In this document: positions 57,840 through 58,058 of the stretch, piece by piece | Numbering within the stretch: position 1 is the stretch's first letter | Layout: the number at the start of each line of letters is the position of its first letter | Position numbers and translations under genes: made by a program | Assembly: GCA_965219995.1 (NCBI GenBank) | Contig: CBDCOX010000002.1 | Span: forward strand, 2,240,001-2,304,000 | Direction of reading: 5' to 3' | DNA: 64,000 nt | From: Candidatus Latescibacterota bacterium | Lineage (GTDB): Bacteria > Latescibacterota > UBA2968 > GCA-2709665 | Notes under the pieces: generated by a model | Seen by the model: only the letters and a program-made list of their open reading frames with translations | What the model was told of the DNA's origin: nothing | The model's database searches: none

Positions 57840-58016
57840 TTAGTCAGTATCCAGATCGGCGAATCTTCGGTCCATCTCAGCCCAGTGAGCAAGCTGCTCG
57901 AGTGTCGGGACAGGCATCCCGGCCTTTCGATAGTCATCATCGGAATAGGGCGTCCCATCCGGATGCCAGACCTGAAAGGCGGCCGGTTCCTGTCGATTTT
58001 TGTTATCTTTCGGCAT
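57840..58016 (-). CDS. 58-aa hypothetical protein starting 5 nt after repeat R5
   Basis: MPKDNKNRQEPAAFQVWHPDGTPY...; the only SD-like sequence (AAAGGA) is inside the repeat. Confidence 0.5.
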   Translation of the reverse strand: MPKDNKNRQEPAAFQVWHPDGTPYSDDDYRKAGMPVPTLEQLAHWAEMDRRFADLDTD

Positions 58017-58021
58017 AAGAC

Positions 58022-58058
58022 GTTTCAATCCTTTCTCTGATGGAAGATTCTCGCCGAG
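58022..58058 (-). CRISPR. Solitary CRISPR-like repeat R5
   Basis: GTTTCAATCCTTTCTCTGATGGAAGATTCTCGCCGAG; 34/37 to consensus. Confidence 0.85.

Follow-up and report, generated by a model that had tools for sequence, protein, structure and literature searches.

We analysed a 64,000-nucleotide stretch of the genome of a Candidatus Latescibacterota bacterium (hereafter the window; the genome carrying it is designated G000), in which a small open reading frame (ORF) on the minus strand takes the place of a spacer between two repeats of the CRISPR (short palindromic repeats that are clustered and regularly interspaced) type and starts a few bases behind the first of them. With confidence somewhat above even, we lean towards the interpretation that this ORF is a cassette gene lodged in a spacer slot at the decayed trailer end of an array, that the repeat has been exapted as its translation-initiation leader, and that the unit has been orphaned in G000. 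The comparison covered 61 related genomes, 14 of which are congeners (15 genomes of the genus including G000); by their record titles the congeners are all Candidatus Latescibacterota metagenome-assembled genomes (MAGs). The unit consists of the following elements:

58022..58058, minus strand: type I-B (Cas6b-type) CRISPR repeat of 37 nt (direct reading, repeat grouping, degenerate pattern, nhmmer profile)
58017..58021, minus strand: 5-nt linker gtctt from the repeat end to the ATG (direct reading)
57840..58016, minus strand: small ORF of 58 codons plus a TAA stop (direct reading, homology, dN/dS)
57792..57829, minus strand: decayed repeat that closes the spacer slot (repeat grouping, profile, blastn against G010)

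Read on the minus strand from 58058 to 58022, the repeat is CTCGGCGAGAATCTTCCATCAGAGAAAGGATTGAAAC, and its end is formed by CTCGGCGAGAATCTTCCATCAGAGAAAGG followed by ATTGAAAC. The ORF opens with the ATG at 58016 and closes with the TAA at 57842-57840, filling the 192-nt interval between the two repeats, i.e. the "spacer" slot, and the 3' part of the repeat, AAGG followed by ATTGAAAC, is its 5' untranslated region (UTR). The only purine-rich motif resembling a Shine-Dalgarno (SD) sequence within 20 nt 5' of the ATG is AAGGA, which sits 5' of the final 8 nt of the repeat. Direct reading of the minus strand thus agrees with the preliminary description of this DNA, which had placed the small ORF in spacer position with its sole SD-like motif 5' of the 8-nt handle. 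A longer in-frame ORF of 130 aa, starting from a TTG at 58232, is not conserved, and cross-genome homology begins only at about 58068. The closing copy at 57792 is weak when scored alone (profile E 0.67 over the whole genome). In the congener G010 the orthologous unit has a better-preserved downstream repeat, with which this copy aligns (blastn 58056->57794, 84% identity).

The small ORF is a genuine conserved protein-coding gene. A six-frame search recovered matches in 14 of the 61 relatives, among them 12 of the 14 congeners, with one to six copies in each and mostly without internal stops. Nei-Gojobori estimates of nonsynonymous (dN) and synonymous (dS) divergence could be used for 92 of the 153 pairs formed by 18 aligned copies, and dN/dS is below 1 in all 92, with a median of 0.26; the pair from G002 and G009, with dN 0.10 and dS 1.57, has a ratio of 0.07. 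Variability by codon position tells the same story (0.40 at third positions versus 0.23 and 0.22 at the others), and the conservation on which the preliminary description had made its proposal turn is therefore real. The two congeners lacking the gene in the six-frame search, G004 and G005, also lack the repeat in the pattern search.

The conserved core of the protein is W-H-P-D-G-T-P-(Y/F)-x3-D-Y-x2-A-G-x-P-V-P-T-x2-Q-x3-W, and the family is restricted to the genus save for distant relatives. It forms 11 clusters in a collection of 5.8 billion proteins, where the only name attached is "hypothetical protein", and a profile search gave 63 matches, about 40 of them small proteins. Long proteins matched by the profile in multiple stretches were considered as relatives and rejected, as they look like instances of a shared short WHPDGTP-like motif; L066 appears, from a reading of its sequence in which no family search was run, to be a PAS-type sensor protein. 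Charge is not a conserved feature, the isoelectric point (pI) ranging from 4.4 to 11.6 among paralogues. Searches gave no Pfam match (E<=1) and no PHROG match for the small protein, and the ESM Atlas yielded no usable match. An AlphaFold2 model, at a predicted local distance difference test (pLDDT) score of 74.6, predicts a short hairpin, a short helix and a long C-terminal helix; it has no Foldseek match at E<=0.001 in the PDB or BFVD. A metagenome scan gave four loci, of which one held a further repeat-linked copy and one a broken copy behind a decayed repeat; two were spurious.

The repeat preceding the ORF is a genuine type I-B (Cas6b-type) CRISPR repeat. Its 31-nt core (<=3 mismatches) occurs in 13 of the 61 related genomes, 11 of these 13 being among the 14 congeners, and G003, G006, G010 and G012 carry canonical arrays of it, with 36-80 copies at a spacing of about 72-76 nt (in the relatives' arrays 167 of the measured spacers are 30-39 nt long). 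The array of G010 lies directly downstream of a type I-B operon encoding Cas6b, a CXXC-type large subunit (Cas8b), a DevR/Csa2 Cas7, Cas5, Cas3, Cas1, Cas2 and Cas4, in which both the Cas6b_N and Cas6b_C domains are matched; Cas6b_C is also matched in G003 and G006. The endonuclease is thereby found in only 3 of the 15 genus genomes and the small ORF in 13 of 15. In G012 a related repeat with an identical 3' half adjoins a type I-C operon, and G014 has a classical 32-nt type I-C hairpin repeat.

G000 itself has no Cas6b (PF17262), PF01881 or PF10040 match genome-wide. Its single Cas1 lies inside an operon with a PF09559 Cas6, the only Cas6 found in this genome, together with Cas3, a DevR-type Cas7, Cas5 and Cas4-Cas1. 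This type I-B-like operon is situated downstream of the window and owns a resident array:

62659..64000, continuing to genome position C2:2304590 (L001 1-590), minus strand: canonical array with a different 36-nt hairpin repeat, 27 repeats (repeat grouping, array scan)

The resident repeat is predicted to fold into a stable hairpin (-9.3 kcal/mol), the ORF-linked repeat to reach only -2.2 kcal/mol without a long stem. The small ORF lies 4.6 kb downstream of the resident array and in the same direction, all these elements being on the minus strand. Over 10 nt the ORF start (ATGCCGAAAG) matches the resident repeat; this was taken as chance, the ORF start being identical in G010, where the PF09559-type Cas6 that accompanies the resident repeat was not found. 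Within the resident array two repeat-spacer units are duplicated in exact tandem (63095-63237 = 63238-63380, 100% identity), and the match of its repeats to Rfam CRISPR-DR33 reaches about 34 bits, short of the 39 set for gathering.

Among congeners the cas operon at this locus is of the Cas6b-type I-B in three, of the PF09559 type in two, of type I-C in G012 and G014, and not detected in the others. A single chromosomal locus can accordingly hold any of three cas operon types or none (L001 in G000, L025 in G010, L035 in G012, L032 in G014); its flanks, as seen in G000 and G012, are a WYL-domain regulator and a metallo-beta-lactamase-fold gene, and the PF09559-Cas6 operon type has a Cas4-Cas1 fusion. 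In G002, G007 and G009 no Cas1, Cas6b_C, PF09559 Cas6, Cas5d or Cas3 scored above cut-off (G002 and G009 are single-contig assemblies, G007 consists of about 100 contigs), and despite the lack of detected cas genes all three keep intact copies of the small ORF.

The coupling of the ORF to the repeat extends throughout the family. A census that started from tblastn matches rather than from repeats covered 34 family loci in regions fetched from 13 genomes; at 24 of these loci the 3' end of a repeat stands 2-5 nt ahead of an in-frame ATG. Three more copies stand behind repeats on inspection by eye, namely that of G014, a frameshifted one in G012 and a broken one in G002, which answers in the affirmative the question raised in the preliminary description of whether homologues also follow repeats. 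A hairpin-type repeat precedes one further copy by 13 nt, next to three others only decayed remains resembling repeats are left, and the rest have no adjoining repeat. The linkers vary (gtctt, tgctt, cgat, agct, caat, cagc, tct, ct and others). Tandem units of the form repeat-ORF-repeat-ORF are common, with slots of 166-209 nt in which only the repeat separates one stop codon from the next start, leaving no room for another ribosome-binding site or promoter. The repeat need not be of type I-B: the copy in G014 has its start 5 nt past the last repeat, a degenerate one, of a canonical type I-C array. At that locus (L032 8330-8660, minus strand) the small ORF behind the I-C array runs at its 3' end into another I-C-like repeat, 16 nt past which stand a type I-B repeat and the next family member, the two repeat families alternating.

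The same junction is seen with genes unrelated to the small ORF, which nevertheless start directly behind decayed repeat ends. An ICMT/PEMT-like membrane methyltransferase gene has its GTG at 0 nt after the 3' 24 nt of the repeat (L042 of G002, 13790-14349; L032 of G014, about 1150-1187), and a 403-aa DUF6361 gene has its start 1 nt past a decayed repeat (L033 of G009, 14180-15427; L032 of G014, about 7530). Cassettes that start 17-27 nt from a repeat have an SD of their own of the GGAGG type. In G008 (L037/L038) and G012 (L034) several repeats are followed by one and the same sequence, ggcgccggcgg(c/t), which suggests a recurring cassette without an ORF directly after the repeat.

The 16S rRNA of G000 ends in CCTCC and SD motifs ahead of its 3719 long ORFs peak at -12 to -10, from which it follows that the genome uses SD sequences. 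Counts of AGGA over these ORFs are 114 and 126 at -12 and -11, 41 at -15 and 30 at -16, and about 6-17 at -30 to -20. Ahead of the small ORF the AGGA starts at -16, and across the family at -13 to -16, positions -15/-16 being populated at about three times the background. The preliminary description had remarked that the spacing is long, and relative to the -12/-11 peak it is, though it would still seem to fall inside the range that the genome uses, at its far edge. Two decayed copies have GAGAGGA or AAGGAAGG at what was once the repeat end, nearer to the ATG; anecdotally, these changes fit selection for an SD after loss of Cas-related constraint.

The repeat ahead of the ORFs is constrained. 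Over 21 ORF-linked copies positions 8-37 are conserved at 60-100%, mostly at >=90%, and AAGGA at >=90%. For 90 pairs of copies with dS of 0.3-3 the mean Jukes-Cantor distance is 0.26 for the repeat and 0.18 for its 3' 24 nt, versus a mean dS of 1.50 and dN of 0.42; the repeat distance is below dS in all 90 pairs and below dN in 67, though these pairs are not mutually independent and gene conversion may contribute. By this measure the repeat evolves about six times slower than the synonymous sites of the ORF. In G000, G001, G002 and G009, which are without canonical arrays of this repeat, the 3' 24 nt differ by 0.116 versus a dS of 1.16 (14 pairs), i.e. about tenfold less. The 5' parts of the repeats occur in genome-specific variants common to neighbouring units.

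These observations suggest how the unit might operate. The region downstream of the array in this genus is a string of cassettes separated by type I-B or type I-C repeats, and the small ORF is one family of these cassettes. The unstructured 3' part of the repeat (...AAGGAUUGAAAC) would form the whole 5' UTR of the small ORF and presumably supplies its only SD-like motif, while transcription would probably come from upstream, by read-through from the array or from upstream cassettes, all of which are on the same strand. Type I-B Cas6b cuts 8 nt from the 3' end of the repeat, and type I-C Cas5d leaves an 11-nt handle. In congeners possessing a cognate endonuclease, whether Cas6b with its 8-nt handle or the type I-C Cas5d with its 11-nt handle, CRISPR RNA (crRNA) processing would therefore cut the leader and should lower translation: a Cas6b cut would separate AAGG from the ORF, and the 11-nt I-C handle would leave AGGA at the very 5' end. 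The notion in the preliminary description that a Cas6 cut removes the SD holds in its geometry, AAGG lying just 5' of the expected Cas6b cut site; in G000 it lacks an agent. There the cognate cas genes appear to be gone and the unit would be an orphan, and as the genome has no cognate Cas6b, expression of the ORF there cannot depend on Cas6b. Gating by Cas6b is possible only in congeners.

Several points weigh against the interpretation of the repeat as an exapted leader. Translation, co-transcription and SD use of the small ORF are our inferences from sequence, no RNA sequencing run containing the stretch having been found. The SD spacing is at the far edge of the genome's range, and no sigma-70-like promoter or terminator was recognised near the ORF on its strand, although the phylum may not follow that consensus. 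Conservation of the repeat extends over its full length, beyond what an SD needs, and gene conversion could explain part of this. No repeat directly adjoins at 7 of the 34 family loci, and relatives in Chloroflexota MAGs hold the domain inside longer ORFs without any CRISPR repeat. All copies are paralogues; the junction of ATG and repeat may have arisen once, and the 24 copies are not independent events. Finally, the small protein has no assigned family, fold or partner from Pfam, PHROGs, Foldseek or the ESM Atlas.

Some of these points would equally be expected if there were no functional link at all, the gene having landed by chance beside a repeat of a decaying array and the two having been copied together by unequal crossing-over, with gene conversion among the repeats preserving their likeness. 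We regard this as unlikely, while giving it more weight than the other alternatives discussed below. It accords with the paralogy of all copies, with the absence of any repeat beside the distant relatives, and with the genome-specific 5' variants shared by neighbouring units, which are as expected of concerted evolution or recent duplication. Nor does a conserved RNA structure join repeat and ORF: RNAalifold on 17 of the 21 units returned only a 3-bp stem and no covariation, and the whole unit folds no better than its shuffles (z -1.57). Yet the junction has been kept across paralogues down to about 45% identity with saturated dS and with differing linkers, and the low divergence of the 3' 24 nt in G000, G001, G002 and G009 was attained where canonical arrays of this repeat are lacking as conversion donors. 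Chance would moreover have had to produce the same juxtaposition with an I-C repeat and with two unrelated genes, and in the tandem units the repeat is the only possible place for a ribosome-binding site.

A second alternative, which we hold to be rather improbable, is that the locus is a mobile anti-CRISPR or anti-defence locus, its solitary repeats corresponding to Racr RNAs and the small ORFs to their protein partners, captured into the flank of the array by recombination between repeats. The accessible text of Camara-Wilpert et al. 2023 (PMC10651486) reports that phage solitary repeat units cluster and are co-transcribed with anti-CRISPR (acr) genes, that type I-C examples exist, and that AcrIC5 and RacrIC1 are on one RNA. 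As in those Racr-acr pairs, a single repeat outside a normal array adjoins a small protein gene here, and the repeat can be of type I-B or I-C. The swapping or loss of cas operons at the locus among congeners would also suit such a role, and so would the existence of protein relatives outside the phylum, one of which neighbours AbiEii and RES toxin genes. The units are, however, chromosomal and syntenic genus-wide, not in a recognisable prophage or plasmid. They occupy the trailer end of host arrays, often in tandem. Neither the ORF nor its neighbours gave a PHROG match, and BFVD yielded no viral fold similar to the protein. In G010 and G003 long arrays and intact Cas6b operons persist beside the units. 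The published pair differs in layout too. It belongs to a mobile element, and in the case put to the test the acr gene comes first and the repeat follows 11 nt downstream (PMC10651486, in the accessible part); here the repeat precedes the start codon by 2-5 nt. None of 240 unique spacers from the fetched arrays has a match outside arrays, all 377 matches of >=75% of spacer length falling inside arrays in the fetched loci and G000.

In the preliminary description the ORF was seen as a possible sensor/toxin switch guarding CRISPR: cleavage would remove the SD, and the protein, a toxin or alarm, would be produced only in cells where Cas6 is absent or inhibited. CreTA guards CRISPR-Cas in a comparable way. 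The position of the SD-like AAGG just 5' of the expected Cas6b cut, a geometry kept in 24 of 34 copies, speaks for this idea, as do the placement of the units downstream of arrays on the same strand and the near-canonical 3' ends of the ORF-linked repeats in the Cas6b-bearing G010. The proposal nonetheless fits the distribution poorly, since a protein that poisons cells without Cas6 should not stay intact under selection in such cells: G000 has no Cas6b, PF01881 or PF10040, and its resident Cas6 serves a structurally different repeat; Cas6b is present in 3 and the ORF in 13 of the 15 genus genomes; and G002, G007 and G009 carry intact copies without detected cas genes, with the dN/dS of 0.07 between the copies of G002 and G009 indicating selection there. 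Variable net charge and pI among paralogues, and the lack of likeness to known toxins or defence families in Pfam and PHROGs, point the same way. Only a very recent loss of cas genes, or silent units, would reconcile the intact copies with a toxin, and we consider the proposal very improbable.

CreTA is a CRISPR-repressed toxin-antitoxin of type I systems. CreA is a crRNA-like guide with a short pseudo-spacer, by means of which Cascade represses the promoter of an RNA toxin. Here the 192-nt interval is not a short pseudo-spacer; it is a protein-coding ORF under protein-level selection, and the dN/dS of 0.26 points to a protein product, unlike the RNA toxin of CreTA. Control would be by cleavage and not by repression, and the units persist without detected cas genes. 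What the two have in common, according to the accessible parts of the accounts of CreTA (PMC8501985; bioRxiv 10.64898/2026.06.02.729485), is the occurrence of degenerate repeats near cas loci that are tied to a small gene, an arrangement that in CreTA makes loss of Cas costly. A broader survey, that of Shmakov et al. 2023 (bioRxiv 10.1101/2023.03.03.530964), deals in its accessible text with CRISPR repeat-like regulatory elements and mini-arrays, standalone or in and around CRISPR-cas loci, to which non-immune roles are ascribed; its mini-arrays have 15-60-bp spacers, its repeat-like sequences do not overlap ORFs, and that text does not describe repeats as leaders of protein genes. None of these systems, whether Racr-acr, CreTA or the repeat-like regulatory RNAs, has an ORF in the spacer slot that starts a few bases after the repeat. 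A literature search, with supplementary files outside its reach, found no account of repeat-led protein genes that occupy spacer slots.

If the repeat is indeed a ribosome-binding leader, it would be a natural exaptation of a CRISPR repeat for translation, and protein output could, through a simple wiring, come under the control of crRNA processing. In engineered operons a Cas6-cleavable repeat placed between cistrons uncouples them by means of Cas6/Csy4; that design is artificial, and a natural counterpart to it is suggested here by the arrangement of the unit. Spacers are usually viewed as short non-coding memories and repeats as sites of processing and integration, and a conserved protein family that sits in spacer position behind repeats of two subtypes throughout a genus departs from that view. 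The trailers of arrays can be hot spots of gene cassettes and defence islands that outlive the cas genes, which bears on how "orphan" repeats are annotated and on the evolutionary connection of spacer integration with the insertion of long DNA.

A bolder conjecture, for which we would claim only a slim chance, is that the trailer ends of these type I-B and I-C arrays are natural cassette arrays built from CRISPR parts, the repeat serving both as the boundary of a cassette and as its cleavable ribosome-binding leader. Gene-sized inserts would then be placed at repeat borders by Cas1-Cas2 acting in a casposase-like manner or by repeat-to-repeat recombination; translation of a cassette and crRNA processing would be mutually exclusive, and the small proteins might report or compensate low processing. 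A likeness can be drawn to integrons, whose compact, mostly promoterless cassettes likewise share one orientation and a common upstream promoter, with a recurring site between one cassette and the next; the order of integron cassettes is shuffled between strains and their cargo is rich in defence, toxin-antitoxin and small genes of unknown function. Here, in contrast, there is no integron-type integrase, no tyrosine recombinase being present at the locus and the only two PF00589 matches in G000 lying at 2.161 and 3.165 Mb, outside the window. The separators also differ, being unstructured CRISPR repeats (-2.2 kcal/mol, 3-bp conserved stem) instead of imperfect-palindrome attC sites.

The repeat that leads the small ORF has further copies in the window. 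Repeat grouping gave five copies on the same strand, at 51916, 56002, 57792, 58022 and 60302, and a degenerate pattern matched 7 times where 0.44 matches were expected; none of 100 shuffles gave more than 2. An nhmmer profile run over the whole 5.4-Mb genome found four strong copies (46678, 51916, 56002 and 58022; E<=6.7e-8), all of them within the window, and no regularly spaced array of the ORF-linked repeat in G000. Beyond the two repeats of the unit, the copies are:

60302..60339, minus strand: strongly decayed repeat copy upstream of the GmrSD gene (repeat grouping, pattern)
56002..56038, minus strand: repeat copy (pattern, profile, Rfam comparison)
51916..51952, minus strand: terminal repeat of the long-spacer array (pattern, profile)
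46678..46714, minus strand: outlying repeat copy, beyond peptidase S51, PQQ and binding-protein genes (pattern, profile)

Against Rfam CRISPR-DR7 the copy at 56002 scores 34.3 bits, under the gathering score of 37, and the copy at 58022 has no Rfam CRISPR-DR match at E<=0.1. Likeness among the copies is limited to about 37 nt. A partial match at 53544-53566 on the plus strand is confined to the dozen bases at the 3' end of the repeat (minus strand GAGGATTGAAAC) and may be a remnant or chance. The gene-bearing "array" of G000 spans from about 60339 to 51916, and the intervals between copies, of 0.2-5 kb, contain genes, among them one of GmrSD type, a weakly UDG-like gene, an EEP-family nuclease and an HI1420-type antitoxin, with an Nmad3 gene just upstream of the repeat-bearing stretch. 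The cassettes and the element at the far end are:

58336..60291, minus strand: GmrSD-type gene filling the preceding long spacer
57090..57695, minus strand: UDG-superfamily-like protein of 201 aa (GINPAS motif, weak Pfam match) with its own GGAGG SD, the next cassette
56099..56959, minus strand: endonuclease/exonuclease/phosphatase (EEP)-family protein in the same cassette block as the UDG-like gene
51840..51915, minus strand: conserved trailer element with a predicted hairpin, also in relatives

The trailer element, of about 60 nt with the form (A/G)GCAGTGGTCGGTG..CAGTGTCAGTGACCAGTCAG.., is found directly behind degenerate terminal repeats; it recurs once in G001 (L026 16261-16330) and twice in G010 (L024 14230-14302 and 18985-19060) and may be an array trailer or a terminator.

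The locus as a whole is syntenic, in the order Ig-repeat (ASH) protein, peptidase S51, repeat-and-gene region, array, cas operon, WYL regulator and metallo-beta-lactamase-fold gene. Within it the cassettes are rearranged, with small ORF, UDG-like gene and EEP gene in G000 and UDG-like gene, EEP gene and small ORF in G001, and blocks of homology between genomes often end at or near repeats. In G000, G001, G009 and G010 the UDG-like gene is found no more than about 1.7 kb from a unit, and in G006 a fragment of it is. This gene was considered as a partner of the small ORF and rejected, being missing from the locus in the other ORF-bearing genomes; a 183-aa gene was likewise rejected, since some ORF-bearing genomes lack it and genomes that lack the ORF have it. 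No PHROG match was obtained for 10 proteins of the locus.

A few other features of the region deserve mention. Three tandem 24-nt units at 52208-52279 lie inside an ORF without family assignment (52128-52730, plus strand). Speculatively, the UDG-like and EEP pair, with GmrSD and Nmad3 nearby, may constitute a base-excision-type module against modified DNA. In a Chloroflexota MAG a distant homologue of the small protein occurs among AbiEii and RES toxin genes (L058 1188-9014), and the genes there are separated by a dispersed 24-34-nt repeat (..GGGGCTTCGGTTGCAGTCGG..) at kilobase spacing, which may represent another island of the cassette type. The HI1420-type antitoxin-like gene at 54750-55214, in the repeat-bounded region and on the opposite (plus) strand, recurs in many congeners, with several copies in G001.

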